Positions 4,413 through 27,157 of a stretch of 45,553 bases of DNA are shown here, piece by piece. Position numbers and translations under genes: made by a program. This stretch comes from Ilumatobacteraceae bacterium (GTDB lineage: Bacteria > Actinomycetota > Acidimicrobiia > Acidimicrobiales > Ilumatobacteraceae): the NCBI GenBank assembly GCA_031428795.1, contig JANOYI010000002.1, positions 1 to 45,553 of the forward strand. Reading direction: 5' to 3'. The notes under the pieces were generated by a model, which did not search any database, was not told where the DNA came from, and saw only the letters and a list, made by a program, of their open reading frames with translations. How positions within the stretch are numbered: the first letter of the stretch is position 1; each line of letters starts with the position of its first letter.

Positions 4413-4958
4413 TTAGACGGCGCGACCGAGGAACTTGAGGAACTCGGTCTGCAGATCGTCGCCCTCGGCGGGCTCGATCTTCGGGCCGAAGATACCTGGC
4501 ATGCGGATCATTGCGTCCATCGGCTTAAGGCCGGAGTAGGCAGCAGCGACGGTGTCCTGGTCGAGGGCTTCGTCGCCGCCCACGGAGCGGGCCAGATCCC
4601 AGGTGTGCACCAGCATGTCGGTGGACATGAAGCGGCCGATGAACTGCCCGGCGGGCATCGGCCCGAACGGACCCGACACGTTGGTGCTGAGGTCGGCGGT
4701 GGAGAGGGCGGCGAGCATGCTGGTGCGTGCCGAGTTCCATGTGCCCACCGGGTCGCTGGCATCGACTGCGGCCGGCTCGCCACCGGAGAGGCCGGCGACC
4801 ACGCCGTTCATCCCGGTTGCGAGGTGGGTGATGACGTCGGTGGCGGTCCAGTTCTCGCACGGGGCGGGGTTGGACCAGCTGTCGGCGGGTGCAGCCTGCA
4901 CGCGGGCATCGAATGCGTTGATGAGAGTGGTGTAGCGGTCAATGATTTCTTGGCTCAT
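4413..4958 (-). CDS. DinB-like / mycothiol maleylpyruvate isomerase N-terminal domain protein (TIGR03086-like)
   Basis: The N-terminus IIDRYTTLINAFDARVQAAPADSWSNPAPCENWTATDVITHL matches the actinobacterial DinB-fold metal-binding family pattern. Confidence 0.65.
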   Translation of the reverse strand: MSQEIIDRYTTLINAFDARVQAAPADSWSNPAPCENWTATDVITHLATGMNGVVAGLSGGEPAAVDASDPVGTWNSARTSMLAALSTADLSTNVSGPFGPMPAGQFIGRFMSTDMLVHTWDLARSVGGDEALDQDTVAAAYSGLKPMDAMIRMPGIFGPKIEPAEGDDLQTEFLKFLGRAV

Positions 4959-5006
4959 GACCGCGAACGTACACCCAGTAGCGTGAGGCTCTTCAACGAC
5001 AGCCCA

Positions 5007-5090
5007 GCCCGGGTGGCGGAATTGGCAGACGCGGGGGGCTTAAACCCCCCTTCTCGAAAGGGAGTGCGGGTTCGAACCCCGCCCCGGGCA
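5007..5090 (+). tRNA. tRNA-Leu (anticodon UAA), class II with long variable arm
   Basis: Hand-folded. The acceptor stem is GCCCGGG/CCCGGGC. The anticodon stem is GGGGG/CCCCC with loop CUUAAAC, giving anticodon UAA. The variable arm is TTCTCGAAAGGGAGT and the T arm is GCGGG-TTCGAAC-CCCGC. The discriminator is A and CCA is not fully encoded. Confidence 0.9.
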
Positions 5091-5270
5091 CCGTTGTGTC
5101 AGCTGGTAAACCAGGGCGCACACCCACGCTTCATGCCGCTGCCCTCAGCGGCCGGCGCCGGTGGTGCCGAGCTCCTGCGCATTCGGGCTCGAAAGGAGGT
5201 TGCGGTGTCAACCGGGCCTCGCCCTCGTTCGTGTGCACGGTATGAACGCAACGGGCAACAATTCGGACCG

Positions 5271-5436
5271 TCCGAACTCACCGCTCGTTTGCGCGCATAC
5301 TTCGCGGATGCCTATCGCCGAGGTCGCTGCCGTCCTGGGTGTTTCACCCGGGTCGGTGAAGACCTCACTGTCGCGGGCAAGGAGCGCTCTCGCCCCGACG
5401 CTGTCCGGGTACATGCATGGGGAGGTGGAGTCGTGA
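5271..5436 (+). pseudogene. ECF sigma-70 factor remnant (region 4 only, 5'-truncated and frameshifted)
   Basis: The track ORF 5161..5436 ends in MPIAEVAAVLGVSPGSVKTSLSRARSAL, a sigma-70 region 4.2 HTH. The preceding region 4.1-like SELTARLRAYFAD lies in the adjacent frame, consistent with a 1-nt indel near 5305. Only about 210 nt separate it from the tRNA, so region 2 cannot be present. Confidence 0.65.
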
Positions 5437-6923
5437 GTATCGATGACGCATCCCGCGACGAACTCGAACTAGCGATCGGTCGCGAGGCGGACGTGTTCCG
5501 AGATCACGTGGGCACGTTTGCCAACACGGACCTCGACTGGGAGGACTTCGAAGCGGCTCTGGCAGGAACGCGTGTGGTCAGCTCCACACCACCGACGTCG
5601 CGTCGTTGGCTCCAGGTGATTGCTGCCGGCGCGGCTGCTGCGACGATCGCAACTCTCGTCGTCGTGTTGACGATCCGTGATGGCACGCCGACAGTGGTGC
5701 CTGATGTCACCACACCGACCACAGGCCCGACGACTGCGCTGCCGGCGACGACGGCGGCGACTACCGAACCGGACCGAACTGGTCTCCTTCGCACGGGGCC
5801 GTTCGACGTTCTGACAGTGAGTGCCGTCGATGAGGTCGGCCGCGTGGGGGTTGATGTGGTCGTCCGGTCGTCCGACGGAACCGCACGATTGGTCCGATAT
5901 GTCGACAACGGCGAGCTTCCGGATGGGTGGACGCTCGGCGTAGGCGGGTCGGTTTCGTCAACTGGGTGGCTCGCTTTGTGGGCGCAGTCGTCCGACAAGT
6001 ACGGATGGGTGTTCGTCGATCTGCTCTCTGTCGATCGGCCGCCGCGCCTTGTGAGCGGCCTCACTGACGGCGGACGCTGGGGGCCTGCAGACCTGTTTGC
6101 GCTCTCCCTCAACGATGGCCGACCCGCAGTGATCGACCCGTCCACCGGTGAGGTGCGCGAGATACCCAACGCCAAGTATCCGGGCGGAAGCCCGGACGTC
6201 ATCTGGAGCGCTGACGGTGATGGCCTCCTCGCCAGCGAGGGCGGTTCGTTTGGTGGCATCTCTGAGATCGATGGGTCTAGCGACATCCAGCCCAGGACCT
6301 GGAGGTTGACTCCTCTTGACGGGTCCGCCGACCGGCCGGGTGTGCCTGCACTGGACCCGTTCGGGACGACTCGGTTTGTCACAGAAGGGGGCAGCTGGCT
6401 GACGGTGGGCGCCTGCCCGAGCGTGCTGGACAAGTGCCTTCCCAACGGCCAACTCATGGACGGCACATTGCAGAATCAGGTCGTGGTGGCCGACGCTGAC
6501 GGCAACTCGACGACGTGGTACGACGACGACCTTCCGGGAGCGCGCCTAATGCAGTCGTCCTTCTCGTTCGACGGGAAGTCGATGTGGCTGCTGTTGGAGC
6601 GCCAAGGGGCCGGCGGGGCAGAGCTCGTCCTCGCGCATATCTCCACGCCGCGTGAGTTGGAGATCACAGCGACCCTCCCAATCGCAGAACCGCCGCCAGA
6701 TCTCGTCTCTCGTGGCGGGGGTACGTCGGTGAGGTTCTTCGCGTCGTTGTGGCTGTCGCCCGACGACGAACTCGCGGTCATCTCCACAATACGAATCGAA
6801 ACAGACACCACAGATACTGAGAACCTGCTCATCCGCACCGACGGCTCGGCGCCTCCTGTTCCGGTCATCGCAAACGTCGCCGGCTACGTTCCTACTTCCG
6901 TGGCCGAACTGCTGGAGTCGTGA
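5433..6923 (+). CDS. single-pass membrane protein with Thr/Pro-rich linker and large extracytoplasmic domain (putative anti-sigma-type partner)
   Basis: A GTG at 5433 overlaps the sigma remnant stop (GTGA). The short cytoplasmic N-terminus is followed by a TM helix (WLQVIAAGAAAATIATLVVVLTI) and the linker TTPTTGPTTALPATTAATTEP. About 380 aa of ectodomain follow, with beta-propeller-like segments (IWSADGDGLLAS, SFSFDGKSMWLL). The upstream part of track ORF 4605..6923 is antisense or tRNA read-through and is not coding. Confidence 0.6.
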   Translation: MSIDDASRDELELAIGREADVFRDHVGTFANTDLDWEDFEAALAGTRVVSSTPPTSRRWLQVIAAGAAAATIATLVVVLTIRDGTPTVVPDVTTPTTGPTTALPATTAATTEPDRTGLLRTGPFDVLTVSAVDEVGRVGVDVVVRSSDGTARLVRYVDNGELPDGWTLGVGGSVSSTGWLALWAQSSDKYGWVFVDLLSVDRPPRLVSGLTDGGRWGPADLFALSLNDGRPAVIDPSTGEVREIPNAKYPGGSPDVIWSADGDGLLASEGGSFGGISEIDGSSDIQPRTWRLTPLDGSADRPGVPALDPFGTTRFVTEGGSWLTVGACPSVLDKCLPNGQLMDGTLQNQVVVADADGNSTTWYDDDLPGARLMQSSFSFDGKSMWLLLERQGAGGAELVLAHISTPRELEITATLPIAEPPPDLVSRGGGTSVRFFASLWLSPDDELAVISTIRIETDTTDTENLLIRTDGSAPPVPVIANVAGYVPTSVAELLES

Positions 6924-7004
6924 CGACCCTCGGACAACATGAGATCGACCGCCTGCTCCTATGGCCATCTGCCGCCGTCGTTCTGCGTCCTTCGAAGTCG
7001 TGAG

Positions 7005-7385
7005 TCAGACGATTTCGATGTGTACGCGGGTGCGGACGGAGTCGGTGATCCTTCGCATGTGTGTCGGGTTTGAAGTGATGATGGCGTCGCGCCTTCGGAT
7101 CGCCCCTTCGGCGACGGTGACATCGACGATGTCGTCGTGGGCAGCCTTTCCGGCGAGCACGCCCACCGCTTTGGCCTGGTCCTCTTCCATGACTTCGATG
7201 ACGCACAGGGCGAGGAGCCGGGCCAGGTTCGCTTGCCGGCTTCCCCCGCGCCATGCCTCGGCGACCACTGGCGCTGGGACGGTCGGGGCGATCTCCTCGG
7301 CCAGGAACCCGGCGTGCAGCGCCCACATCGCGCGGTCGTTACGGTCGGCGGCGATCAGCGCTCCGGTGTCGTACGTGACGCCCAT
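7005..7385 (-). CDS. vapC: type II toxin, PIN-domain ribonuclease
   Basis: 126 aa with the PIN-like pattern MGVTYDTGALIA ... DDIVDVTVAEGA ... ITSNPTHM. Its start overlaps the stop of the upstream RHH antitoxin by 1 nt (TGATG). Confidence 0.75.
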   Translation of the reverse strand: MGVTYDTGALIAADRNDRAMWALHAGFLAEEIAPTVPAPVVAEAWRGGSRQANLARLLALCVIEVMEEDQAKAVGVLAGKAAHDDIVDVTVAEGAIRRRDAIITSNPTHMRRITDSVRTRVHIEIV

Positions 7386-7648
7386 CAGGAGGCTTTGCGC
7401 CTCGAAGCCGGACGGCCGAGAATCGCCCTCGCGCGGGCGAGTCCATCAGCCAGCTCCTCGGTGGTGAGGGTGCCGTGCTGGCGCTCCCATTCGGCGATGC
7501 CGCGCCGACCGGCGTCGAGTCGCAAACGGTGTGCCGCGGTGCTGGCGATCCACGCGCTGACTGTGGTGCCCTCAGCTGCCGCAGCGCGGTCGATCTCGGC
7601 AGCGAGGTCCGATGGAAGTGAGATCGATCGCTTCTGTCGTTGGGCCAT
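7385..7648 (-). CDS. vapB: type II antitoxin, ribbon-helix-helix
   Basis: 87 aa starting at the ATG at 7648. MAQRQKRSISLPSDLAAEIDRAAAAEGTTVSAWI is a CopG/RHH N-terminus. The longer track ORF 7385..7939 reads through the tRNA fragment and is not credible upstream of 7648. Confidence 0.75.
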   Translation of the reverse strand: MAQRQKRSISLPSDLAAEIDRAAAAEGTTVSAWIASTAAHRLRLDAGRRGIAEWERQHGTLTTEELADGLARARAILGRPASRRKAS

Positions 7649-7656
7649 GACGAGAT

Positions 7657-7679
7657 GGTAGGACAGCAGGTAGGACAGC
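7657..7679 (-). promoter_or_regulatory. tandem direct repeat, candidate VapB operator
   Basis: GGTAGGACAGC occurs at 7657-7667 and again at 7669-7679, separated by 1 nt. The repeat starts 9 nt upstream of the vapB start codon. Confidence 0.4.
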
Positions 7680-7828
7680 GCAAACGCGAAATCCTGCACG
7701 GTTCCTGCACAAGACCTGACCGTACCTGTGGGACCCGGGCGGATCAGACGGACACGGACCGCCTGGACGAAGCCCTCGCCGAGGTCGCTCGGATCACCGG
7801 CCGAGATCACGTCACCCCCGCTCAGCAG

Positions 7829-7883
7829 CGGTGCCCGGGGCGGGTTTCGAACCCGCACTCCCGTTCGAAAAGGGGGGGTTAAG
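7829..7883 (-). pseudogene. tRNA-Leu 3'-half remnant (anticodon loop to 3' end), att-like
   Basis: The reverse complement aligns by hand without gaps to 5039-5093 of the intact tRNA-Leu, with 51 of 55 positions identical. Similarity stops in the anticodon loop. The sequence 5' of it has no GGGGG anticodon-stem partner and no acceptor 5' strand, so it cannot fold as a tRNA. Confidence 0.75.
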
Positions 7884-7945
7884 ACTTCACTTCCACGTCC
7901 GGGACGGGCGGATAATGGTGGTGGACGTGAGCAGGTCAAACGGAC

Positions 7946-10900
7946 TCAGCCGGACGCTCGTCGAATTCGATCAATCGCATGAGGTGGCCATCGACGCCGC
8001 AGACCGCTCGGCGCCGGTAGGCCCCGCCGCGACGGCATCTCGTCGAAGTAGGCGAGTGCGGCGGCGAGGTCGTCCTCGGCAAACAGGTTGACCGTACGGA
8101 GTTTGCCGTCGGCGCTGCCGTAGACGCCGATGAAGGCGAGCCCGATCCAGTAGTCGCCAGCACCGCCCAGCGTCCACATCGAGCCGGCGAGGACGCACGC
8201 ATCCTCGTTCGCGGCGTGGATGACGCTGTACACGGGTGCGCCCCGCAGCGTCTCGTCCTCGTCGCGGACGTGGAACAAGGCGAGACCGTCCTCGCGGTCC
8301 ATCGTGCCGTAGCCCAGCGGGCGGTGGTCGACCATCGTGAAGTCATCGTGCGTCAGGCGTGTCTGGCCGACGACGTCGCTGTTGCGATGCGCGTCCAGCC
8401 ACTGCCGGATCGACTCCGGCACGACATCGGCCGCAGAGGTCTCCAGGGCGGTTTGTTCGAAGGTGTTCGTCGCGGCGTGCAGGTCGCACTGTTCGAAGAG
8501 GGTGACCCGGACGATCCGGTCGTGTTCGTCGATTTGCTCGACCGACCAGTGTGAGTTCTCGATCCGGGTGAGCGCGAGGCGGTCGCCACGCACGGCGATG
8601 GTCTCGCGCTGCGTCACCCCGTACCCGAGCGTCGCAGGGTCGACGGTGCCGCTGCGCAGGTCGCCGAGGGTGACGGTCGTGCCGTCGATCAACGTGGCCG
8701 TGAAGTCGTCGGCGAGCAGACAAAGGACGTCGCCCGGTTCGCCGCATCGGGCCAGGGTGTTGGCGAGGCCGCCGGCGACCACTGCGTTGTTCACCATCGG
8801 GTCGGCGATGGTCTCGGCCGCCCACCGGCCGGCCAGCGCACGAGCGAGGTGCTCCTGATCGTGTTGAAAGTGGTCCATCTGAGCGATCAATCCGCTCGCT
8901 GGCAGCAATCGCTTGACGGTGACGAAGCGATCCACCAAGTCACCGCCGTGGCGATCGGTGAACTGGAGTCGGGAGTCGAGGAGCACCCCGGTCGGGCCTG
9001 CGAGCTCCACCCGTTTGTTGGTGAAGAGCGCCTCGCCGTCGTACCCGGTGATCGTTGCGAGACCGGCAGCGACGCCGGCTCGGTCCAACTCGCCCCAGCT
9101 GATCGCTCGATGCGTCGTCGACACGACGTAGGGCGCCAGAGTGCTCAGCGCCCTGGCGAGATCGCGGTCGTTCGCGGCGTCGAAATAGGTCAATGTCGCT
9201 TGCAACTGGGCGGCGTCGAGCGGCGACAGGTCCTCTATGTACCACGCGTCCAGCTGGTCGAACGCGGCGCGCAGGGCGGTGAGGTCGTACACGGCGGCCT
9301 CGGTCAGCAGGCCCTCGGTACTCCAGCGGGTGAGCAGGAGGAACTCGAACTCGAAGTCTTGATCTCGGTAGATCCACACGTGTCGCTGCAGCACCAACGA
9401 GTCGCCTCGGACCCCCATTGTTTCGGCGCTCATCGAGACCGGCTGGTCGGTGTAGGCGTGGCTGACCTCGGAGCGGCCCCTGTACGACCCGCCGGTGAGC
9501 GAGCGATGGCTCACCCAGACGACGTCGTCGTCGAGGCACGCTGCCCATTCGTCGAAACGGTCGGCTGATCGGAGATCGATCGCTCGCCGCATCCAGCGAT
9601 CGGCGTCGTTCCAGGGCTCGTCGTCCGGGGTCGGCAGGGCCTCGCTGAGCGCCGGGGCGCTGCCGTCGAGTTCGTGGAAGCGGGCCGTGGCGGCGTCGAG
9701 ATCGTCCTCCGGGAACAGTTCGAAGCTCGTGAGGAGACCGTCTCGCAGCCCGAGCACGGAGAGATTGACCACGCTCTCCCAGAGGTGGCCGGAGGTCGAG
9801 TCCGTGATGGCGGCGACCTTCCAGACCTGGGCTCGTGCGCTGCTGGCGGATACGCATTGAACGACCATTACGTCGAGGGCGTCGGGACCCCACGCGAACG
9901 TCGCCAGGAACCCGTCACGGTCGGATGCCGGGAATCCCAGTGGGCGGTGGTCCTCGACGCGGAACTCGTCGGCTAGGAGCGCTCGCATTGCCGCTTCCTC
10001 CCGGTTCCGCATGGCCCGGTTGGCGCGGAGGACGGTAGCGCTCACGTCGTCGACGTCGAGCTCCTCCCAGCGATCCTCGATGGCGTTCGCGGCCTTGGCG
10101 ATGCTTGCGAACTGACGCACACGTTGCAGGTGGCCGGTGTCGTCGACTTCTTCGACGGACCAGTGACCGGTGCCGTCGTCGAATCCGACGTACAGCATTG
10201 CCAACCGGTCTGTGAGCACAGACATGATTCGTCGGTCGACGACTCCGTAGCCGAGCGCTCTCGGTTCGACCGTGCCCGTGCGGAGGTCGTCGAGGGTGAC
10301 GGTGGTGCTGTCGGTCAGGGTGGCGGTGAAGTCGTCTGCGAACAAGGCGAGGAACTCGTCGAGTGAGGCGGTCCGCGCCCGGGCGTTCGCCACGCCACCC
10401 GTCCGCACGGCGGTGTTCGGCGCAGGGATCACGGCGTCGATCTCCGCCCGAGCGACATCGAAGCAGGCGAACGCCTCGTCGAATTCACCATCGGCGAACT
10501 GGTCAATCCGAATGGTCAGGCCGGTCGCTGGCTCCCAACTCGCAACGATCAAATGGTCATTGACGAGCTGCCCGGCTCCGGCTGTCGTGGCGATCAGACG
10601 GTTGCTGTGGCACCGCTGGGTCGATGACCGACGCCACTCGCGTTGCATCAGCAGGATCTGCGAGTCGGAATTTTCGGTCAACGTTCGCATCCGCTCACGG
10701 AAATCATCGAACCGCGAGTCGTGGCCCCAACCGATCAGGTGGTGGTCGGCCACCACCAAGCTGGGGTGGCAAAACCGCATGATCTGATCGAGGTCTCCGA
10801 CTCGGATCGCTTTCATGAATCGTAGGTTGAAGGCCTCCTCGGCCCCGTCGCTCGGGTCGAGCGTGTCGAGATACAGCCGATCCAGCTCGGCGATCGCCGC

Positions 10901-13900
10901 CCGCAGGTCGTCTGTCTCGAAGACGATCTTGATCAGCTGCAGCCCCCCGGACCAGCGGCTGATGACCAGCGAGTCGAGCCGCGGGCCGGTGGGGTCATCT
11001 CGGCGCGTCCAGTTCATCTCCGAGAGCACGAGATCGTCGCCTCGCGCAGCAATCGTGGTTACATCGCACGACATCGGCCCCATGGTCTCGCCAACGGCCT
11101 TCATCTGCTCGACCACGTCGGCCCTGTTCTCGATGATCATGCGCACACCCGAGCGAAGGTCGGCTCCTCGCACGTCGTCGTCCAGCATCGCTTCCCACGC
11201 CTCGAGGTCTCCTGACGTGAGCAGCTGAGTGTTCTTGCGGAACAACCGGTCCGCTTCGTTCCACGGCTCGTCCGATGGTTCGGCGGGCGACCCTTGGGCG
11301 TGTGAGTTACTTGCTGTCTCTGCGGGAAACGGGGTTGACTTCGACGCACCGGCAGTGAGCTCGACGCTGACAGTCGCGCCCTTCTGGGCGAAGAGCTTCC
11401 GTGCGGCCGACGCAGAGCTGTGGGCGCCGCCGTCGTCACCCGCTGCCGCGCGCACTCGGGCCAGGGTCGAGAGGGCGTTGGCGTGATCGAAGACGAGGTC
11501 GGTGCCGGTCGCCAAGCGGACCGCTTCGTCGGCCAGGGCGAGCGCCCTGCCGACGTCGCCACGGGCGGTCAGGATCTCCGCCTGCGCGGATCGTGCGGTG
11601 ATGGCGGTCTGCAGGTTCTGGCCAGCGAGCGCGTAGCTTTCGGTGGCGAGGTCGTCGGCCTCGCCGAGGTGTCCCTGCAGCAGGAGCGCGCGAGCGAGGT
11701 GGGCGGCGGCCTGGCCGGCGTCGGCGCCGATCCCGAGCTGGCCGAGCCCACCGAACGCGTCGCGCAGATGCGGCACCGCTGCCGCCGGATCATCGGCGAG
11801 CAACTCGACGATCCCCGCGTACAGGCTCGTCTCGAGTAGCCCGTGGTCGAGGCCGAGTTCGAGGCTGGTGGTCCTCGAAGCGTCCAGTAGCGATCGAGCC
11901 GTTTCGAACCGGCCGCGCATCGCTTCGAGCACCGCCTGGCATCGCGACGACGTGGCGACGACCGCCGGAGAGTCCGCAGTGATTCGCGAGAGGCGCATGA
12001 CGTCGAGGCACCGCCCGCCAGCGCGGGCGACCGGGCTCGGACCCCACAGCGCAGCGACCGGCGCACTGCTGAGCACGGTGGTGATGCGTCGTCGATCGTT
12101 GGCAGCGCGCGCCGCCGTGAGCGCGAGATCGAGTTCGGTCTCGGCGGCACCAACCTGACCGAGCCGGGCGAGTGCGCCCGCGCGCACGATGCGGGCCTTG
12201 GCCAACCCGGCCCGATCGCCGAGCGTCTCGAATTGGGCGGCGGCCTCTTCTGTCTGTTCCGTCGCCTGCTGCAACCCGGTCGGGTCGGTCATCACGGCGA
12301 GCTGAGCCGTGAAGCATGTCGCCCATGCAGCCAGTCGGGCATCGCCCTGTGCCCGCCCACCCAGACGCTTAACGAGTGCGACGCCGGTCGTTGTGTCACC
12401 CGCCGACAGCACCGACTCACACGCGAGCACCAGCAGCTCCGAGAGCGAGTCGGCGTCTTCAGCGAGACACTCGATGGCCCGCCGACTGAGACCCGCCGCT
12501 GCCGACAGGTCGTCACGCTCCAAAGCCCGGGTGGCGGCGACGTGCAGGAGCCCGGCCGCCCGCTTGCCGGCCTCGGTGGTGATGGCGTCGTCGTCGCCGA
12601 GCTGGCGCCGGTAGAGCCGTGCCTGTTCGAAGTGGTAGGCGGTCGCCACCTCGAACTCACCCACGAGCCCCGAGGCGGTTCGGTCCATCCAGTCGCCGAC
12701 GCGCAGGTGGAGTTCGGCCCGAGCGCCCTTCAGCAACCGCCGGTACGCGGCATCACGGATGAGGACGTGATGGAAGCGAACGATCGGCTCGTCGCCCCAG
12801 TACGTGCCGGTCGGTTCCACCTGCTCCTTGCGGCGCAGCCGTTCGAGGACCACTTCGAGATCGCGCCGGCCGATCTCCGGCACCAACTCGACGAGCGCGC
12901 CCAGTGGGAACTCCGGCCCGATCACCGACGCCCGCTCCAGCACCCGGCGCTCGACCGGCGGGAGGCGCTCGACGCGGGTGGCCAGCAGCGACTGGATGGT
13001 CGGCGGTACCTCGACGGCGTCGAGGTCGACGGCCAGCTCCCACCGATTCTCGAGCTGGGCGAGGACGCCGTCGTCGACGAGCATGCGGATCAACTCACGT
13101 ACGAACAGTGGATTGCCATCGGTCGAACTCGGCAGCTTGGCCGTCAGCTCGGCGGGAAGGGCGCCGCCACCGAGCAGCTCGGCCGCGAGGAGTTCGGTCG
13201 CCGCCGCGTCGAGCCCGTCGAGCGACACGACAAGCGCCACTCGACGACCCGTCTCGGTGAGAGCGGGTCGGATCTCGCGCAGTTCTGGTCGGGCGAGCCC
13301 GACGATCAGGACCGGCGCCGCCTTGGACCACTCCGCAAGATGCTCGAGCAGATCCAGGAAGAGTGGCTCGGCCCACTGGATGTCGTCGATCACTAGCACG
13401 AGTGGTCGGCGACTGCCGAGCATCTCAACCAGGCGACGCACGCCAAAGAACGCATCCTCCGTCGAGCGCGGTCTGGCGGTGCCGACGAAGCCGCCGAGCA
13501 ACTCGACGACCCGATCGGCGTCCGATTCGCCTCCGACCAGATCGCGTAACGCGGCGACGATCCGCTCCGGAGTATCACCATCATCGAGCCCCGCGACCTG
13601 CTGGAGGAGGTCCACCACTGGAGCGAACGTCGCCGTGCCGGCCCGCTCGCACCTGATCTCCACGATGTCGGCCGCGCCACTCGTGGCATTGCCGAGCTCG
13701 CGAGCCAGCCGGGTCTTGCCGACACCCGGCGATCCGATGACCGTCGCCAGCCGGGCCTGGGAAATCGCCAGCGTCTCGTCGAACAATGCCCGCAGCCGGC
13801 CGAGCTCGTTGTCACGCCCGATGAAGGGCGTCGAGTCGGGCTGCCCGAAACCGCCGATGGCGAACCCGCTGCCGTCGTCGGCCAGCACGAGCTGGAACGT

Positions 13901-14635
13901 GGCAAGCCCGTCGCGCTTGCCCTTGGCCGTCACCTCGACGAGAGGCTCGTAGCCGACGGTCGACCGGGTGAGCCGCCACGTCTCTTCGCCGACCAGCACC
14001 TGGCCCGGCGTGCACGCCGACTCGAGCCGGGCCGCCGTGTTGAGCACGTCGCCGACGAGATCGGCATCGTTGTCGTCGATCACGACCTCACCGGTGTTGA
14101 TCCCGACCCGTAGGCCGACTTCGACGCCGTAACGCGTCCCGATGTGATCACGAACCGGCTCGAAGCCGCGCTGCAGGGCGGCACCGGCGGCGACGGCGCG
14201 GTCGGCGTCGTCTTCGGCCACCTCGGGAACCCCGAACAGGGCCATCACACCGTCGCCGATGAACTTCGCGACCGTGCCGCCGTTGCTCTCGATCACCGAC
14301 TTCGCCATCGCGTGGTACCGGCCCATCGCTTCTCGGGCCGACTCGGTGTCGACGCTCTCGGCGAACGCGGTGGAGCCGACCAGGTCGCAAAAGAGCACGG
14401 TGACGGTCTTGCGAACCGCATCGGAGTCGGAAGGGGTTGCGACCGGTGCCTGCGTCGGGGCGCCACCTGCCGCGGCCGAGGTCCCGCAGCCGTTGCAGAA
14501 GCGGGCGTCGGGGCTGAGCTCACGGTCGCAGGCCGAGCACCGGACGGCGAGCGCCCCACCACAGGCGTCGCAAAAGCGTGAGCCGGCCCTGTTCTCGCGC
14601 CTACACCCCTGGCACTCCAAGCTCGATCCTCCCAA
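7946..14635 (-). CDS. double zinc ribbon / class III adenylate-guanylate cyclase / STAND P-loop NTPase / TPR-like / 8x NTF2-like multidomain protein
   Basis: 2229-aa ORF. CQGC..CDAC and CSAC..CNGC motifs lie in aa 1-52. The cyclase motifs are VTVLFCDLVGST, FIGDGVMALFG and GDVLNTAARLES. Walker A is GSPGVGKT and Walker B is LVLVIDDIQW. A helical-repeat region follows, then two super-repeats of about 550 aa. The track start is TTG 14635, but TTG 14620, preceded by GGGAGGA plus 6 nt, is the more likely start. Confidence 0.85.
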   Translation of the reverse strand: MGGSSLECQGCRRENRAGSRFCDACGGALAVRCSACDRELSPDARFCNGCGTSAAAGGAPTQAPVATPSDSDAVRKTVTVLFCDLVGSTAFAESVDTESAREAMGRYHAMAKSVIESNGGTVAKFIGDGVMALFGVPEVAEDDADRAVAAGAALQRGFEPVRDHIGTRYGVEVGLRVGINTGEVVIDDNDADLVGDVLNTAARLESACTPGQVLVGEETWRLTRSTVGYEPLVEVTAKGKRDGLATFQLVLADDGSGFAIGGFGQPDSTPFIGRDNELGRLRALFDETLAISQARLATVIGSPGVGKTRLARELGNATSGAADIVEIRCERAGTATFAPVVDLLQQVAGLDDGDTPERIVAALRDLVGGESDADRVVELLGGFVGTARPRSTEDAFFGVRRLVEMLGSRRPLVLVIDDIQWAEPLFLDLLEHLAEWSKAAPVLIVGLARPELREIRPALTETGRRVALVVSLDGLDAAATELLAAELLGGGALPAELTAKLPSSTDGNPLFVRELIRMLVDDGVLAQLENRWELAVDLDAVEVPPTIQSLLATRVERLPPVERRVLERASVIGPEFPLGALVELVPEIGRRDLEVVLERLRRKEQVEPTGTYWGDEPIVRFHHVLIRDAAYRRLLKGARAELHLRVGDWMDRTASGLVGEFEVATAYHFEQARLYRRQLGDDDAITTEAGKRAAGLLHVAATRALERDDLSAAAGLSRRAIECLAEDADSLSELLVLACESVLSAGDTTTGVALVKRLGGRAQGDARLAAWATCFTAQLAVMTDPTGLQQATEQTEEAAAQFETLGDRAGLAKARIVRAGALARLGQVGAAETELDLALTAARAANDRRRITTVLSSAPVAALWGPSPVARAGGRCLDVMRLSRITADSPAVVATSSRCQAVLEAMRGRFETARSLLDASRTTSLELGLDHGLLETSLYAGIVELLADDPAAAVPHLRDAFGGLGQLGIGADAGQAAAHLARALLLQGHLGEADDLATESYALAGQNLQTAITARSAQAEILTARGDVGRALALADEAVRLATGTDLVFDHANALSTLARVRAAAGDDGGAHSSASAARKLFAQKGATVSVELTAGASKSTPFPAETASNSHAQGSPAEPSDEPWNEADRLFRKNTQLLTSGDLEAWEAMLDDDVRGADLRSGVRMIIENRADVVEQMKAVGETMGPMSCDVTTIAARGDDLVLSEMNWTRRDDPTGPRLDSLVISRWSGGLQLIKIVFETDDLRAAIAELDRLYLDTLDPSDGAEEAFNLRFMKAIRVGDLDQIMRFCHPSLVVADHHLIGWGHDSRFDDFRERMRTLTENSDSQILLMQREWRRSSTQRCHSNRLIATTAGAGQLVNDHLIVASWEPATGLTIRIDQFADGEFDEAFACFDVARAEIDAVIPAPNTAVRTGGVANARARTASLDEFLALFADDFTATLTDSTTVTLDDLRTGTVEPRALGYGVVDRRIMSVLTDRLAMLYVGFDDGTGHWSVEEVDDTGHLQRVRQFASIAKAANAIEDRWEELDVDDVSATVLRANRAMRNREEAAMRALLADEFRVEDHRPLGFPASDRDGFLATFAWGPDALDVMVVQCVSASSARAQVWKVAAITDSTSGHLWESVVNLSVLGLRDGLLTSFELFPEDDLDAATARFHELDGSAPALSEALPTPDDEPWNDADRWMRRAIDLRSADRFDEWAACLDDDVVWVSHRSLTGGSYRGRSEVSHAYTDQPVSMSAETMGVRGDSLVLQRHVWIYRDQDFEFEFLLLTRWSTEGLLTEAAVYDLTALRAAFDQLDAWYIEDLSPLDAAQLQATLTYFDAANDRDLARALSTLAPYVVSTTHRAISWGELDRAGVAAGLATITGYDGEALFTNKRVELAGPTGVLLDSRLQFTDRHGGDLVDRFVTVKRLLPASGLIAQMDHFQHDQEHLARALAGRWAAETIADPMVNNAVVAGGLANTLARCGEPGDVLCLLADDFTATLIDGTTVTLGDLRSGTVDPATLGYGVTQRETIAVRGDRLALTRIENSHWSVEQIDEHDRIVRVTLFEQCDLHAATNTFEQTALETSAADVVPESIRQWLDAHRNSDVVGQTRLTHDDFTMVDHRPLGYGTMDREDGLALFHVRDEDETLRGAPVYSVIHAANEDACVLAGSMWTLGGAGDYWIGLAFIGVYGSADGKLRTVNLFAEDDLAAALAYFDEMPSRRGLPAPSGLRRRWPPHAIDRIRRASG

Positions 14636-14846
14636 CCCCGAGCGTCAGTCTCGCCGATTGAGGTGCCCAGTGCCAGGACGAAAGCCGAAATGCGCATCAC
14701 CGATCGTTCCTGATCGGAGATCTGAGCGACCGCCGAGGGTCGGTCCACCGCCGACGTCAGGACAGGTGGCCCCTGTGGGTACGGCGTGGGTGTGGAGGCG
14801 GGCGTTGCCGACGCTGTACCGTGTGGGCCGACATTTGGGGGTCGAA

Positions 14847-15137
14847 GTGGCCATCAGGGTGATCGTCGAGTTGAAGGCAAATCCGGGTCAGCGGGATGAA
14901 CTCATTAGTCTGATCGAACGAATCAGGTCGGACGGGCCGCCGATACCCGGATCGCTCGGCGCGACCTTCTACAAGTCAGTCGATGATCCCGACATGCTGG
15001 TCGAAATCGCCGACTGGGTGTCGGCGGACGCGCTGGCAGCCGTCATGACAGTGGCCGAGACGTCTGGTGCGTTTGCGCCGATGTTCGAGCTTCTGGCTGC
15101 CCCGTTCAGAGTCACGACGGTCGAACCGCTGGGCTGA
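14847..15137 (+). CDS. antibiotic-biosynthesis-monooxygenase (ABM)-like small protein
   Basis: About 96 aa from GTG 14847, with GGGGG 7 nt upstream. The sequence IRVIVELKANPGQRDELISLIERI ... LVEIADWVSADALAAV fits a ferredoxin-like ABM fold. The rest of track ORF 14259..15137 is antisense of the big gene. Confidence 0.55.
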   Translation: MAIRVIVELKANPGQRDELISLIERIRSDGPPIPGSLGATFYKSVDDPDMLVEIADWVSADALAAVMTVAETSGAFAPMFELLAAPFRVTTVEPLG

Positions 15138-15321
15138 ACTCGGGCGACTCGCCGGGCTGGCCGGGGTCGACTGGCTCGGCGGAAGGCCGCCGTGCGGCCG
15201 TTCGTCGCCGACCTGACGGCCACACCCAGTGCGCTAACTTTTCTTTTCTTGCCCCGGGCCCGGTCAAGAGCACGGGGACACGCCAGTCACGCGACGGGCT
15301 TTGTCCGAGAAGGAGGCAGCT

Positions 15322-15996
15322 ATGACGACGTTCGTCCTGGTCCACGGCGGGTTCGGAAGCCCCGCCGAGCTGGCACCGGTGATCCCCGAGCTCGAGGCGC
15401 TCGGCCATACCGCATTCGCCGTCGACCTACCCTGCACGGACCCTGCTGCCACGCTCGAGGACTACGCCCAAGCTGTGGTCGACGCCATGATCGGACTCGA
15501 TCCGCCGATCGTGGTCGTTGGCCACTCCGCGGGCGGTGCGACGATCTCGCTGGTGCCCAACCTGACACGCGTCGACGGCTTGGTCTATGTGACCGCCTTC
15601 GTTCCCGAGCCGGGGCGCTCGATCTGGGACATTGGCGGCCCGGAAGTCCGCGAGACCATCCTGGCCATCTCGCGCGATGACGGCAACGGCTGCCGGTCAT
15701 TCGACCTGGAGCTGTTGGCGTCGACTGTGCCACCCGAGGAGCGAGACCCGTATCTCGCGAACCTCAGCGCCACGCAGCGTCCGCAGGGTTGGGCGGCCAT
15801 GGAGCAGCCGTGGCCTGGTCGGTCGTTCCCCGACGTGCCGTGCACCTACGTCCTCTGTACGGAGGACAACGTCTTGCCGCCAGCAACCCAGCGGGAGATG
15901 GCGACCCGTTTGGGGGTGGTGCCCGTCGAGATCGCCTCGGACCATGGGGTCTTCGCGATCCGCCCCCACGACCTCGCAGCGCTGATAGCGGGTTAG
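15322..15996 (+). CDS. alpha/beta hydrolase (esterase-type)
   Basis: GAAGGAGG lies 6 nt upstream of the ATG at 15322. Has FVLVHGGFGS, a GHSAGG nucleophile elbow and a C-terminal SDHGVF histidine motif. Confidence 0.75.
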   Translation: MTTFVLVHGGFGSPAELAPVIPELEALGHTAFAVDLPCTDPAATLEDYAQAVVDAMIGLDPPIVVVGHSAGGATISLVPNLTRVDGLVYVTAFVPEPGRSIWDIGGPEVRETILAISRDDGNGCRSFDLELLASTVPPEERDPYLANLSATQRPQGWAAMEQPWPGRSFPDVPCTYVLCTEDNVLPPATQREMATRLGVVPVEIASDHGVFAIRPHDLAALIAG

Positions 15997-18150: not shown

Positions 18151-21100
18151 TTGGCCGGTTCTGGGCTGGTCACGATCTTGTTCACGGATCTCGTGGGTTC
18201 CACCGCGCTTGCTCAACAGCTTGGCGACACTGCGGCGGATGCTGTTCGTCGTGATCACTTCGACCAACTGCGTCGGGCTGTCACCGCAACTGGGGGCACG
18301 GAGGTCAAGACCATTGGCGACGCGATGATGGTGTCGTACAACTCGGCGAGCGACGCCATCGCTGGAGCTGTGGCGATGCAGCAGCGGGTGCATGGCCACA
18401 ACACAGACGGTGCGTCCGCCGTGCAGATGCGTGTGGGCATCAGTGCCGGTGATGCCTCGTTCGAGGACGGCGATTGGTTCGGTACGCCCGTTGTCGAGGC
18501 ATCGAGGCTCTGTGGCGCCGCGCAGGGCGAGCAGATCCTGGTGACCGACATTGTGCGCGTGCTGGCCGGTTCCCGCGCCGGATATCAGCTGTTGCCCGTT
18601 GGCCAAATCGACGGCAAGGGCCTTGCCGCGCCGATGACCGCGTGTGAAGTGCAATGGGAGCCGATCGCCATCGCTGGCGGGGGCCGGCTGGAGGTGGCGC
18701 TGCCGCCTCAGGTCGAGCAGGGTGACGTGTTCGGATTCGTCGGACGAGGGGAGCAGAAGGATGCTTTGTGGGGGGCCTGGAAGACGGTCACTTCGTCTGG
18801 CCGACTGGCAGTCTTCATCGGCGGCGAGCCTGGCATCGGCAAGACCCGCCTCGTCAAGGAGCTCTGCCGAGAAGCACACGATCAGGGTGGTGTGGTTCTG
18901 TGGGGTGCATGCGACGAGGAACTTGCGCTGCCCTATCAACCGTTCGTCGAGGCGTTCCACTGGCTCGCTGATGCATTGCCACCCGATGTTCTGCGTGAAC
19001 TGGCCGGCTCACTCGGCGGTGAGCTGCTGCCGCTGATCCCCGACCTTGCCAAGCGAATCCCGGGTCTCGAGCAGCGCCTCAGCGATGACGCCGAGGCCGA
19101 GCGTTATCGGTTGTTCGAGGCAACGGCCGAGCTACTGCGTGACCTTTCGGCGAGAGAGCCCGTGTTGTTGGTACTCGACGATTTGCATTGGGCGCGCAAA
19201 CCCACGTTGTTGTTGCTGCGGCACCTGCTCAAGTCGTCGGCGTCGATGAACGTGCTCATCGTCGCGACGTACCGCGACACAGACCTCGACCGTACTCATC
19301 CGCTGTCGGAGATGCTCGCCGACCTGCGTCGGCAGAACGGTGTCGAACGATTGATGTTGCGCGGACTCGACGAGTCGGGTGTTCAACAGTTCCTGGCGAA
19401 CACCGCCGGCCACGACCTCGACGACCGAGGCGTCGCCCTCGCGCAAGCGATCGCTCGCGAGACCGAAGGCAACCCGTTCTTCGTCGGCGAAGTGCTCCGT
19501 CACCTCACCGAGTCAGGTGCACTGGTCTACCGCGACGGTCGCTGGAACTCGGATAAGCAACTGGCCGACATCGGCATTCCGCAAGGTGTGCGCGAGGTGA
19601 TCGGTCGTAGGTTGTCGAACCTCGATGGCGCAGCCAACGAGGTCCTCGCGACTGCCGCGGTGATTGGGCGTGACTTTGAACTGCGCACGCTGAGCGCTGT
19701 TGCCGGAGGCTCCGATCGAGTATTGGACGCTCTCGGATCGGCCGAAACGGCTGGCCTCGTCGAGGCGGTCAACGGGCGCCCGGGCGTGTACCGCTTCGCG
19801 CACGCACTCGTGCGCTCAGCGCTGTACGACGAGCTGCCGACGAGCCGCCGGTTGCGGCTTCACCGAGATGTCGGGCTCGAGCTCGAACGCGAGGGTGATG
19901 ATTCGTCTCGGATCAATGAGCTAGCCCGACACTTCACCGAGGCCGCGGCGCTCGGCGAGATCGACAAGGCCGTCCGTTATTGCCGCAAGGCGGGTGAGGC
20001 GGCGAATGATGACCTGGCATTCGAGGAAGCGGCCGCACACTTCGAGCACGCGCTCGAGTCACTCGCCCTGCAGTCGCCCGTAGATGAACGCGTTCGCGCT
20101 CATCTACTTTTCGCCGCCGGCAACGCGCTTCACCAGATCAGCGATCCGCGAGGTCGTGAGCTGCTCGGCGCTGCGGAGGAATCTGCCCGTTCACTCGACG
20201 ACATGCCGCTGCTCGCTCAGGTTCTGATCGGAACGTCAGCCGATGTCATGACGCGCAATGCGGCCGAAGTCGACGAGCGCATCGCCGGCTTGTACGAGCA
20301 GGTCCTCGCGCGCAGCGATGAGATACCCGCCGATCTCCGCGCTCAAACGATGGCTGCGTACTCTCGTGAACTGTTCTGGGGCCCCAATCTGGAACGACGT
20401 CGTCAGCTGTGCGAAGACGCGCTCGACATCGCCCGGGCGACTGGCGATGTGCGAGTGCTGGCTGAGGTGCTGCACAGCGTCAACCTCATGATCGATCTGA
20501 CCGAGCCCAGCGGCTTCGACCAATTGCTGGCGTACTCCACCGAGATGGTTGAAGTGGCAGCCGGAGTCGATGATTCGCTCGTCTGTACTGCGCTCACATC
20601 GAGGTTTGTCGTCAACATGTGCCGGGGCTTTGTCGATCTCGGCGACCGCGATCTCGTGCAGGCCGAGCTGCTCGCCGAGCGGCTGCGCATCCCGCAGCAC
20701 ATCGCACGAACCAAGCTCCACCGCAGCGCGATGGCGCTGCTTGCCGGTCAGCTCGACGACTGCGAGCTGCTCCTCGCCGACTACGAAGGCTTCTGTGCGC
20801 GGGAGCAGGTCGGCGGATCCGCGGCCGGTGCTGGAGGTGTTCGCTACCGGCTGCAGTACGAACGCGGCGACCTTGATGGTCTCGAGGACTTCTTGGGATT
20901 ACTCATCGAGGCCCAGCCATTAGTGCCGGTGTGGCGCATGGCTCTGTGTGGCGTGTATCTCCAGTCGGATCGCCTCGAGCTGTGCCGACCGCACGTCGAA
21001 GCGATCGGCGCCGACGACTTCGCAATCGTTCCGCGTAACCAAGCGTTCCTCATCACCTGCTCCAGCGCGGCGCGCTTCGCCGCCGAAGTTGGTGTCCTCG

Positions 21101-21453
21101 ACGTTGCCGAGGCCGCCTACAGCCACGCGTCACCATTCGACGGTGTGTTCCCGTACTCCGGCGCAGCCTTCGAGTACCCGGTGGGCGTGGGCGTCGGAGC
21201 AGCGGCCGCCGCGCTGGGATGGTACGACCTCGCCGAGCAGCACTACGCCAACGCGTTTGCTTTGTGCGAGCGGGCCGGAGCGCCGACGTACCTCACCGCG
21301 ACCCAGGTTCACTGGGCAGAGATGCTCCTCAGTCGCGATGCTCCTGGCGACGCTCAACGTGCTCACGGTTTGGCGGCATCTGCTCGTGAGACCGCCCGAC
21401 GACTTGGCCTTGCCTACATGTTGAGGAGGGCTGACCGGGTCTTGGCCAGTTAA
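18151..21453 (+). CDS. class III cyclase / STAND P-loop NTPase / TPR-like protein (paralog 2)
   Basis: TTG start with GAGGGGG 7 nt upstream and an in-frame TGA at 18136. The cyclase motifs are VTILFTDLVGST, KTIGDAMMVSY and GTPVVEASRL. Walker A is GGEPGIGKT and Walker B is VLLVLDDLHWA. The C-terminal half is a long helical repeat. Confidence 0.85.
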   Translation: MAGSGLVTILFTDLVGSTALAQQLGDTAADAVRRDHFDQLRRAVTATGGTEVKTIGDAMMVSYNSASDAIAGAVAMQQRVHGHNTDGASAVQMRVGISAGDASFEDGDWFGTPVVEASRLCGAAQGEQILVTDIVRVLAGSRAGYQLLPVGQIDGKGLAAPMTACEVQWEPIAIAGGGRLEVALPPQVEQGDVFGFVGRGEQKDALWGAWKTVTSSGRLAVFIGGEPGIGKTRLVKELCREAHDQGGVVLWGACDEELALPYQPFVEAFHWLADALPPDVLRELAGSLGGELLPLIPDLAKRIPGLEQRLSDDAEAERYRLFEATAELLRDLSAREPVLLVLDDLHWARKPTLLLLRHLLKSSASMNVLIVATYRDTDLDRTHPLSEMLADLRRQNGVERLMLRGLDESGVQQFLANTAGHDLDDRGVALAQAIARETEGNPFFVGEVLRHLTESGALVYRDGRWNSDKQLADIGIPQGVREVIGRRLSNLDGAANEVLATAAVIGRDFELRTLSAVAGGSDRVLDALGSAETAGLVEAVNGRPGVYRFAHALVRSALYDELPTSRRLRLHRDVGLELEREGDDSSRINELARHFTEAAALGEIDKAVRYCRKAGEAANDDLAFEEAAAHFEHALESLALQSPVDERVRAHLLFAAGNALHQISDPRGRELLGAAEESARSLDDMPLLAQVLIGTSADVMTRNAAEVDERIAGLYEQVLARSDEIPADLRAQTMAAYSRELFWGPNLERRRQLCEDALDIARATGDVRVLAEVLHSVNLMIDLTEPSGFDQLLAYSTEMVEVAAGVDDSLVCTALTSRFVVNMCRGFVDLGDRDLVQAELLAERLRIPQHIARTKLHRSAMALLAGQLDDCELLLADYEGFCAREQVGGSAAGAGGVRYRLQYERGDLDGLEDFLGLLIEAQPLVPVWRMALCGVYLQSDRLELCRPHVEAIGADDFAIVPRNQAFLITCSSAARFAAEVGVLDVAEAAYSHASPFDGVFPYSGAAFEYPVGVGVGAAAAALGWYDLAEQHYANAFALCERAGAPTYLTATQVHWAEMLLSRDAPGDAQRAHGLAASARETARRLGLAYMLRRADRVLAS

Positions 21454-27113: not shown

Positions 27114-27157
27114 TGCGGGCGGACAAAGGCCGCTCGACGCGCTGTAATAATGGCGAC

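Follow-up and report, generated by a model that had tools for sequence, protein, structure and literature searches.

The 45,553-nucleotide stretch of Ilumatobacteraceae DNA analysed here (contig JANOYI010000002.1, positions 1 to 45,553; the window, below) encodes on its minus strand a giant protein that joins a double zinc ribbon, a class III nucleotidyl cyclase, a STAND-type P-loop nucleoside triphosphatase (NTPase) and a putative helical arm to a C-terminal array of eight NTF2-like domains. The head of the protein is of a known kind; the NTF2 array in the sensor position is new, and the protein is a member of a large unnamed family of giant proteins from Actinomycetota. With moderate confidence, we read it as a non-immune, cytoplasmic, signal-transducing STAND ATPase, the output of which would be the synthesis of cyclic AMP (cAMP) and the sensor of which would be the TPR-like arm together with the eight NTF2-like domains.

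The gene lies in one open reading frame (ORF), 7946..14635 on the minus strand, that runs for 2229 codons with no interruption. The original prediction, made by reading the DNA letters, was right about this frame, which is open and has an identical product on an independent contig, and it overstated the size of the protein, taken to be 2229 amino acids (aa). The TTG at 14620 (read as 'MECQGC'), which sits five codons downstream of the listed TTG at 14635, is the probable start, and the product is then 2224 aa long. A Shine-Dalgarno motif precedes this TTG, and P0001, the closest homologue, has its start at the corresponding MECRGC. The independent contig, L002 (10.86 kb, from an ENA metagenome), bears a called gene with a 2224-aa product identical to that of the window; at the DNA level there is 1 mismatch in 10,860 bases against window positions 5060-15919. 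Since L002 independently encodes the identical product, the ORF is neither interrupted nor an assembly chimera; the low similarity between the two repeat halves of the protein also argues against a chimera. The GC content of the gene (0.66-0.70) is continuous with that of the surrounding window. No segment of the protein reaches transmembrane hydrophobicity, the maximal 19-residue Kyte-Doolittle mean being 1.48.

Repeat-rich giant genes are prone to misassembly, and the related long-read loci L004 and L006 are full of frameshifts. Even so, it is extremely improbable that the gene is an artefact, whether through chimeric assembly, repeat collapse or decay to a pseudogene: the independent contig has the same product with its single mismatch in 10.9 kb, the repeat halves A and B are 34% identical in protein and so too different to collapse, the frame stays open over 6.7 kb at 67-70% GC, and the ratio of nonsynonymous to synonymous substitution rates (dN/dS) is below 1 in all modules. 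The gene and its modules are laid out as follows, with aa coordinates of the modules in the 2229-residue numbering.

7946..14620, minus strand: complete gene, 2224 codons plus stop, TTG start (Shine-Dalgarno motif, P0001 and the L002 gene call)
14627..14632, minus strand: Shine-Dalgarno motif (GGAGGA), 6 nt before the TTG start codon (direct sequence reading)
14483..14614, minus strand, aa 8-51: double zinc ribbon, 2 x CxxC...CxxC (Pfam DZR)
13889..14410, minus strand, aa 76-249: class III nucleotidyl cyclase domain (Pfam Guanylate_cyc; D84, K124, D128, D192, N199, R203)
13301..13828, minus strand, aa 270-445: STAND-type P-loop NTPase, AAA_16 (Pfam AAA_16; Walker A GSPGVGKT, Walker B LVLVIDDIQW)
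11336..13300, minus strand, aa 446-1100: putative helical arm and TPR-like region (TOMM_kin_cyc alignment, weak TPR_12 and MalT matches, family conservation)
10856..11272, minus strand, aa 1122-1260: NTF2-like unit 1, A1 (SnoaL_2 E 8.5e-8; AlphaFold2 model; unit hidden Markov model, HMM)
10421..10855, minus strand, aa 1261-1405: NTF2-like unit 2, A2, DHH/DHR-type (AlphaFold2; Foldseek; unit HMM)
10046..10420, minus strand, aa 1406-1530: NTF2-like unit 3, A3, short type with LADDFTATL insert (AlphaFold2; unit HMM)
9626..10045, minus strand, aa 1531-1670: NTF2-like unit 4, A4, DHRPLG-type (SnoaL_2 E 7e-3; AlphaFold2; unit HMM)
9224..9625, minus strand, aa 1671-1804: NTF2-like unit 5, B1 (SnoaL_2 E 5e-4; AlphaFold2; unit HMM)
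8795..9223, minus strand, aa 1805-1947: NTF2-like unit 6, B2 (SnoaL_2 E 0.06; AlphaFold2; Foldseek; unit HMM)
8423..8794, minus strand, aa 1948-2071: NTF2-like unit 7, B3 (AlphaFold2; unit HMM)
8024..8422, minus strand, aa 2072-2204: NTF2-like unit 8, B4 (AlphaFold2; unit HMM)
7949..8023, minus strand, aa 2205-2229: Arg/Pro-rich C-terminal tail, predicted to be disordered (predicted local distance difference test score, pLDDT, below 50 at residues 534-559 of model B)

The array is formed by two diverged super-repeats, A (aa 1122-1670) and B (aa 1671-2229), that align over 542 aa with 34% identity (E 1.3e-76), a likeness that, as an alignment of sequences, is far beyond chance. The original prediction had recognised both of them, and the motifs by which it did so are all there: DEPWNEADR at aa 1122 and DEPWNDADR at aa 1672, as well as LADDFTATL..TTVTL.DLR.GTV, DHRPLG and LF.EDDL.AA in both halves. 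Over the whole protein Pfam SnoaL_2 matches three stretches with E 1.2e-13 (52 bits against a cutoff of 27). When the eight pieces were scanned separately, A1, A4, B1 and B2 matched SnoaL_2 with E from 8.5e-8 to 0.06, and this per-unit SnoaL_2/Pfam scan gave no match for A2, A3, B3 and B4. AlphaFold2 models were built for A and B from a six-sequence alignment and have a pLDDT of 84.7 and a predicted template modelling score (pTM) of 0.80 for A, and 86.5 and 0.85 for B. In each model the super-repeat is predicted to fold into four alpha+beta units of the NTF2 cone type, in which three helices pack against a curved antiparallel sheet; along the chain of a unit, two or three helices come first, then a short strand, another helix and four long strands, and a helix closes the C-terminus. 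HMMs for the single units, derived from the alignment, find eight units in the order 1-2-3-4-1-2-3-4. Together with the Foldseek matches described below, the models and unit HMMs confirm, at the level of predicted fold, that eight NTF2-like domains make up the C-terminal ~1,100 aa, in agreement with the earlier guess of an NTF2-like fold and about four units per super-repeat. The array is strongly acidic (182 D+E versus 100 K+R).

Foldseek searches of the PDB with the A and B models returned matches that are all NTF2-like proteins. Single-domain matches reach a target-normalised template modelling (TM) score of 0.77, with ketosteroid isomerase at 0.75 and a root-mean-square deviation (rmsd) of 2.7 Å; further matches are Rv0760c, limonene epoxide hydrolase, the SnoaL-like CatM, designed digoxigenin binders and the CaMKII hub. 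The top matches, with E of 5e-10 to 2.7e-12, are the polyether epoxide hydrolases Lsd19 and MonBI-MonBII, and their ~280 aligned columns correspond to two consecutive NTF2 domains. The likeness has its limits: identity is 10-14%, the target-normalised TM score 0.37-0.39 and the rmsd 12-14 Å, so the relative orientation of the two domains differs, and, unlike the giant protein, Lsd19 and MonBI-MonBII have just two domains and are stand-alone enzymes in biosynthetic clusters.

We have considered whether the array could be an output or enzymatic module, that is, a string of SnoaL/epoxide-hydrolase/isomerase-like catalysts, or a hydrophobic-metabolite sponge, controlled by the STAND-cyclase head. 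Enzymes do stand at the top of the Foldseek results, namely ketosteroid isomerase and the limonene and polyether epoxide hydrolases. The location of the homologue P0021 among P450, TetR, thiolase, ChsH2-like and acyl-CoA ligase genes would suit such a role. We nevertheless regard it as quite improbable, given that identity to the matched enzymes is 10-20%, that a search of PDB sequences with the super-repeat profile yields marginal NTF2 matches (E at least 0.019), that a conserved biosynthetic or catabolic neighbourhood was not seen at related loci, and that the effector of STAND proteins is normally N-terminal, a position occupied here by the cyclase. DDRR and DHRPLG, the family-conserved polar motifs, differ from the known catalytic motifs of NTF2-like enzymes.

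The modules of the head are likewise those that had been predicted. The Pfam matches to the double zinc ribbon (DZR, PF12773, aa 8-51; 38.9 bits against a cutoff of 27.3, E 1e-9), the cyclase (Guanylate_cyc, PF00211, aa 76-249; 61.1 bits against 21.9, E 1.4e-16) and the NTPase (AAA_16, aa 270-445; 76.9 bits against 32.6, E 3.4e-21) are all above their cutoffs, and the catalytic and Walker residues are in place. The eight zinc-ribbon cysteines (C8/C11/C22/C25 and C33/C36/C47/C50) are present in the translation, as are FCDLVGST, AKFIGDGVMALFG, NTAAR, GSPGVGKT and LVLVIDDIQW; Walker A and B are intact. The cyclase domain aligns to PDB entries 2W01 (E 6e-22) and 3R5G (E 1e-20), and in these alignments D84 and D128 are the metal aspartates and N199/R203 the transition-state pair. 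The substrate-specifying pair is K124/D192, the Lys lying four residues before the Asp of GDG and the Asp seven before Asn199; judged by residue identity, this pair with the other residues is the canonical adenine-specifying class III set. The '450 aa of helical repeats' that had been expected behind the NTPase are weakly matched: TPR_12 at aa 894-960 reaches 18.8 bits where 30.1 is the cutoff, and MalT, too, gives a weak match. The segment is nonetheless conserved across the family, with phmmer matches that span ~530 aa. A search of the STAND and arm region against PDB sequences found no match.

Conservation of the catalytic residues was counted over 53 family sequences. The metal aspartates are Asp in 52/53 at each of the two positions, the Asn is kept in 52/53 and the Arg in 53/53; in the NTPase, the Walker A G and K are invariant (53/53), and the Walker B Asp pair is present in 52/53 at the first position and in 53/53 at the second. 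The specificity positions are more relaxed, with Lys in 42/53 and Gln in 10/53 at the equivalent of K124, and Asp in 41/53 and Glu in 7/53 at the equivalent of D192. The Gln (10/53) or Glu (7/53) residues hint at an altered nucleotide specificity in a subset of the family. The 10 members with Gln for the substrate Lys resemble the mycobacterial cyclase Rv0386, which uses a non-canonical Gln/Asn pair.

Among the closest known systems are the multidomain class III adenylyl cyclases Rv0386, Rv1358 and Rv2488c of M. tuberculosis, which have the order cyclase, ATPase/MalT-like, TPR and LuxR helix-turn-helix (HTH) (bioRxiv 10.1101/2024.03.06.583649). The giant protein is built like them in that its class III cyclase is N-terminal and a STAND NTPase of the AAA_16/MalT type comes next, with a putative TPR-like helical arm behind it. 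Unlike them, it has a double zinc ribbon before the cyclase, a canonical Lys/Asp pair and, after the TPR arm, eight NTF2-like domains instead of a LuxR/GerE HTH. The lack of a C-terminal LuxR HTH had been noted in the original prediction, and indeed no GerE or other HTH is found in the giant protein by a Pfam scan at E up to 1; a paralogue in the window, at 27035-30592, does carry one. The best NCBIfam match is the TOMM kinase/cyclase fusion (TIGR03903), with the cyclase, NTPase and arm (aa 50-680) aligned to model positions 262-892. Membership of this equivalog was rejected, as the match scores 229.9 bits against a cutoff of 705.75 and the giant protein has no kinase domain and a different C-terminus.

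The architecture recurs widely. A word-indexed search with the array returned 10 proteins, one of which, P0001 (on a contig labelled Ilumatobacteraceae), has the same head. An exhaustive profile search returned 2,381 representative protein clusters, defined at 50% identity, at E up to 1e-3, and 583 at E up to 1e-30. The architecture figures given here cover the best 150 of the 2,381 clusters, which amount to 155 proteins when the matches of the first search are included. The best 150 clusters are mostly 1,000-5,200 aa long and have up to 18 matched stretches. Searching the head modules of the window protein against the 155 proteins, we found the complete set of DZR, cyclase, NTPase and arm in 34, and cyclase, NTPase and arm in 20, many of which begin at cyclase residue 1-2 and are therefore truncated; 23 have the end of the arm only, 76 the NTF2 array only, and 2 other partial combinations (NTPase and arm; cyclase and arm). 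A cyclase-STAND-TPR head with an NTF2 array is present in at least 55 clusters (55 among the 155 proteins). The arrangement, called unusual in the original prediction, is so relative to its characterised relatives, but not as a one-off, since at least 55 clusters at 50% identity share it.

In the 55 cyclase-bearing clusters the array comprises 4-29 units (median 12), and two unit types usually alternate. Consensuses drawn from ~1,650 units read ..DDRR....G...lAtRGdRLaL....FD.DDldaA.aELD.Ry. for type 1 and adDf..vDHRplG.g....dGr..R.E.Fd.ddldaAlARFdEL. for type 2/4. The basic module of the family is a two-domain unit, an 'RGD.L.L/DDRR' type with a 'DHRPLG' type after it. One subfamily is marked by the four-unit 1-2-3-4 super-repeat and includes the window protein, P0001, P0012, P0013, L003 and L004. 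All identifiable sources of the family are Actinomycetota, Acidimicrobiia or Ilumatobacteraceae metagenome-assembled genomes (MAGs); the GTDB genome search, with narrow patterns (DEPWNEAD and similar, from a three-sequence alignment), gave 3 loci and under-samples the taxonomic range. Databases give family members generic names: 'nuclear transport factor 2 family protein', 'AAA family ATPase' or 'class 3 adenylate cyclase/TPR repeat protein'.

Most array-only proteins begin inside a unit and are probably fragments of giant genes. Stand-alone NTF2 arrays were considered as a separate family, and some may be genuine, but P0006, the one case examined on a long contig, is part of a fragmented giant gene: six-frame unit mapping of its 296-kb contig revealed one frameshift-riddled gene with ~23 units, behind gene fragments of a DZR-cyclase-AAA_16 head. 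Frameshifts also split giant genes into several called genes at L006 2195-15148 and L004 6643-14962, both in long-read-style assemblies, and in L006 two small opposite-strand genes are called across genuine NTF2 units. As frameshifts break genes in assemblies of this style, fragments of giant genes appear in databases as 'stand-alone' NTF2-array proteins. Apparent extra domains at the C-terminus of some homologues were dismissed too, the tails being Arg/Pro-rich out-of-frame junk.

Three members, P0017, P0034 and P0100, carry an N-terminal SARP module (a Trans_reg_C winged HTH plus BTAD) ahead of the cyclase. P0017 (L009 1993-17595) has 29 NTF2 units in 5200 aa; in P0100 there appear to be two cyclase domains. 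The module is of the type found in AfsR, itself described as SARP-NOD-TPR (PMC10936776). Like the STAND regulators of the AfsR, MalT and GutR type, the giant protein has an N-terminal effector, a central STAND NTPase and what would be a C-terminal repeat sensor; unlike them, its output would be a nucleotide cyclase in place of DNA binding (in P0017, P0034 and P0100, added to DNA binding), and its putative sensor is extended by the NTF2 array. That a SnoaL_2/NTF2 domain can be appended to a signalling protein of actinobacteria for regulation has a precedent in extracytoplasmic function (ECF) sigma factors (ECF41, ECF56 and SigJ-type), which are described as bearing a C-terminal SnoaL_2 regulatory extension (PMC7730460). 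In contrast to the giant protein, theirs is a single domain on a sigma factor, with no NTPase, cyclase or array.

The array and the head differ in their rates of evolution. We calculated dN/dS by the Nei-Gojobori method for the window gene against P0001 and obtained 0.14 for the DZR and cyclase, 0.09 for the NTPase, 0.14 for the arm and 0.37-0.55 for array units A1, A2, A3 and B4; dS is ~0.6-0.7 and similar in the head and in units A1 and A3. With dN/dS below 1 and dS similar, the array is under purifying selection yet accepts amino-acid change 3-5 times faster than the head. Sensor modules usually evolve faster. The array also changes in length. The head of P0001 is 86% identical to that of the window protein, and its array consists of a single super-repeat and one unit more. 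Units 1-2 of P0001 are nearest to A1-A2 and its unit 4 is nearer to B4 than to A4, which suggests, from unit similarity, that the P0001 array is recombinant. L004, an Ilumatobacteraceae MAG, has a head 77-92% identical over the aligned segments and three 1-2-3-4 super-repeats, and L003 has at least 3.5 super-repeats in a single open frame. Close relatives therefore vary in their number of super-repeats (1.25, 2, 3 and at least 3.5).

A sensor role for the array is supported by its position C-terminal to the NTPase and TPR; the sensor of STAND proteins lies there in MalT and AfsR-type proteins. It is supported as well by the combination of constraint with evolution 3-5 times faster than that of the head, and by the nature of the Foldseek matches, which are ligand-binding or catalytic NTF2 proteins. 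At rest, the protein would be an ADP-bound, autoinhibited monomer. A ligand would then occupy the NTF2 array; small hydrophobic metabolites, one or several, lodged in the cone pockets are the likeliest candidates, and a protein partner is a less likely one. Binding would lift autoinhibition and lead to nucleotide exchange at the AAA_16 NTPase and then to oligomerisation, and the oligomer would pair the N-terminal class III cyclase domains as the head-to-tail dimer required for catalysis, with cAMP as the product. We infer the sensor role, the nature of the ligand, activation through oligomerisation and the cAMP product from the domain order, from NTF2 cones elsewhere and from the behaviour of STAND proteins.

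Several observations weigh against this reading. Arrays of 8-29 domains would far exceed the needs of a single small-molecule sensor, and a scaffold or protein-recognition surface would fit at least as well. The high pTM suggests that the modelled units are packed as a rigid body, for which a structural repeat is equally possible. Unit by unit, A1 alone (33.2 bits) surpasses the SnoaL_2 gathering score, with A4, B1 and B2 below threshold, and units 1 and 5 of the window protein deviate from the family-conserved DDRR motif.

Some of the same observations bear on a further alternative, which we think unlikely though worth serious consideration: the array may be a rigid structural scaffold that binds no small molecule and instead binds a protein partner or sets oligomer geometry, as TPR, WD40 and LRR repeats do in other STAND proteins. 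At 0.80-0.85, the pTM of the four-unit models implies that the domains are packed in a fixed arrangement, the two unit types alternate regularly over the ~1,650 units, and the most conserved positions include the C-terminal helix F-D-x-D-D-L-x-A-A-x-A-x-L-D that joins consecutive units. Moreover, NTF2 domains are known assembly modules, and the CaMKII hub is among the Foldseek matches. However, DDRR, DHRPLG and RGDRLAL, the polar motifs that are conserved, are not confined to linkers but fall within the domain, and the NTF2 proteins nearest in structure bind ligands or are catalytic.

Directly downstream of the giant gene and on the same strand lies a VapBC-like pair encoding a ribbon-helix-helix (RHH) protein (7385-7810 (-), RHH_1, E 4e-4) and a PIN protein (7005-7385 (-), E 4e-4); the divergent upstream neighbours encode an ABM monooxygenase (14775-15137 (+), E 3.6e-7) and an alpha/beta hydrolase (15301-15996 (+), E 1e-21). 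In L006, a FitA-like RHH and PIN pair is found directly upstream of the homologous giant gene (1494-2121). RHH-PIN toxin-antitoxin pairs are abundant in Actinomycetota, and the adjacency in the window and in L006 may be a coincidence. Except for the RHH-PIN pair of L006, no conserved partner gene was found beside the homologues across related loci. Their neighbourhoods are variable, housekeeping-like and metabolic, with genes for poly-gamma-glutamate synthesis or P450/TetR/thiolase/acyl-CoA ligase genes. At L008, the P0021 locus (1-22293), a 3430-aa member is encoded among P450, TetR, enoyl-CoA hydratase, ChsH2-like OB-fold, thiolase and acyl-CoA ligase genes. Such surroundings, seen in this single case, resemble lipid/steroid catabolism and would fit a hydrophobic NTF2 ligand.

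This context also bears on whether the protein could be an antiviral or conflict STAND receptor, either Avs/bNACHT-like or Pycsar-like, with a variable array that would recognise invader proteins and a cyclase that would make a nucleotide alarm. Such a role, which we judge distinctly unlikely, would be in keeping with the match of the cyclase domain to PADLOC PycC models (E 4e-18), the 3-5 times faster evolution of the array units, the variable super-repeat copy number, the RHH-PIN pair adjoining the gene in the window and in L006, and the clustering of three STAND paralogues within 45 kb. However, the PADLOC matches comprise the PycC cyclase models and a marginal mad8 (E 0.0019) only, with none to Avs, NLR or other STAND defence models, and the PycC matches reflect generic class III cyclase homology. 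Beyond this homology the giant protein differs from PycC in its adenine-type specificity residues and in its STAND and sensor body, absent from PycC; the Lys/Asp pair predicts ATP rather than the pyrimidine substrates of Pycsar. No adjacent gene for a cyclic nucleotide-binding effector was found at the window locus or at five related loci, the neighbourhoods are metabolic, and the dN/dS of the array is below 1. Pycsar membership was rejected on the lack of such an effector gene beside the cyclase gene, here or at related loci, the neighbours here being RHH/PIN, ABM monooxygenase and alpha/beta hydrolase. Some members bear a SARP DNA-binding module, which is typical of regulators and not of immune proteins.

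The window contains three cyclase/AAA_16 STAND paralogues, the giant gene included. The first of the other two, 18151-21453 (+), encodes 1100 aa with Guanylate_cyc (E 2e-13) and AAA_16 (E 8e-29) matches and lacks both the zinc ribbon and the NTF2 array; with the head of relatives of the giant protein it shares ~29% identity. The second, 27035-30592 (+), encodes an 1185-aa paralogue with a weak (E 0.0026), possibly degenerate cyclase match. Its GerE/LuxR HTH, at aa 243-294, separates the cyclase from AAA_16 instead of closing the C-terminus, an unusual placement for the protein class; MalT-like TPR follows. Two further long ORFs have no Pfam match: 4605-6923 (+), encoding 772 aa (none at E up to 1e-3; L002 has a gene call for it too), and 32780-35047 (-), encoding 755 aa (none at E up to 1e-2).

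A literature search for cyclase-STAND proteins with NTF2 arrays found no description. A 2026 survey of STAND proteins mentions neither cyclase nor NTF2 (PMC13581612). The NTF2 arrays escaped notice because the 2025 global map of the NTF2 superfamily left out proteins of more than 1,000 aa (PMC12204192). Many of the 'stand-alone NTF2 array' proteins in databases may be fragments of giant genes.

STAND NTPases (NLRs, Avs, MalT, AfsR) are a general means by which the recognition of a molecule is converted to an all-or-none output. The sensors known in them are solenoid repeats (TPR, WD40, LRR, ANK, HEAT), and the NTF2 fold is otherwise known for binding small hydrophobic molecules. We tentatively propose, as a possibility rather than a probability, that tandem NTF2-like domains constitute an unrecognised class of repeat sensor for STAND NTPases, on a par with TPR, WD40 or LRR arrays: each two-domain module would offer a pocket, many hydrophobic metabolites (or variable protein targets) would converge on a single cAMP output, and the repertoire would change as whole super-repeats are gained and lost. 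If the signal-transducing reading is true, a sensor position filled by 4-29 NTF2 cones would broaden the sensing range of STAND proteins, and the family would represent a cAMP-signalling route in the abundant, uncultured Ilumatobacteraceae and other Acidimicrobiia. If the repeat-sensor proposal is true as well, the family would amount to a sensory system that is both new and widespread among the uncultured Acidimicrobiia of water and soil.

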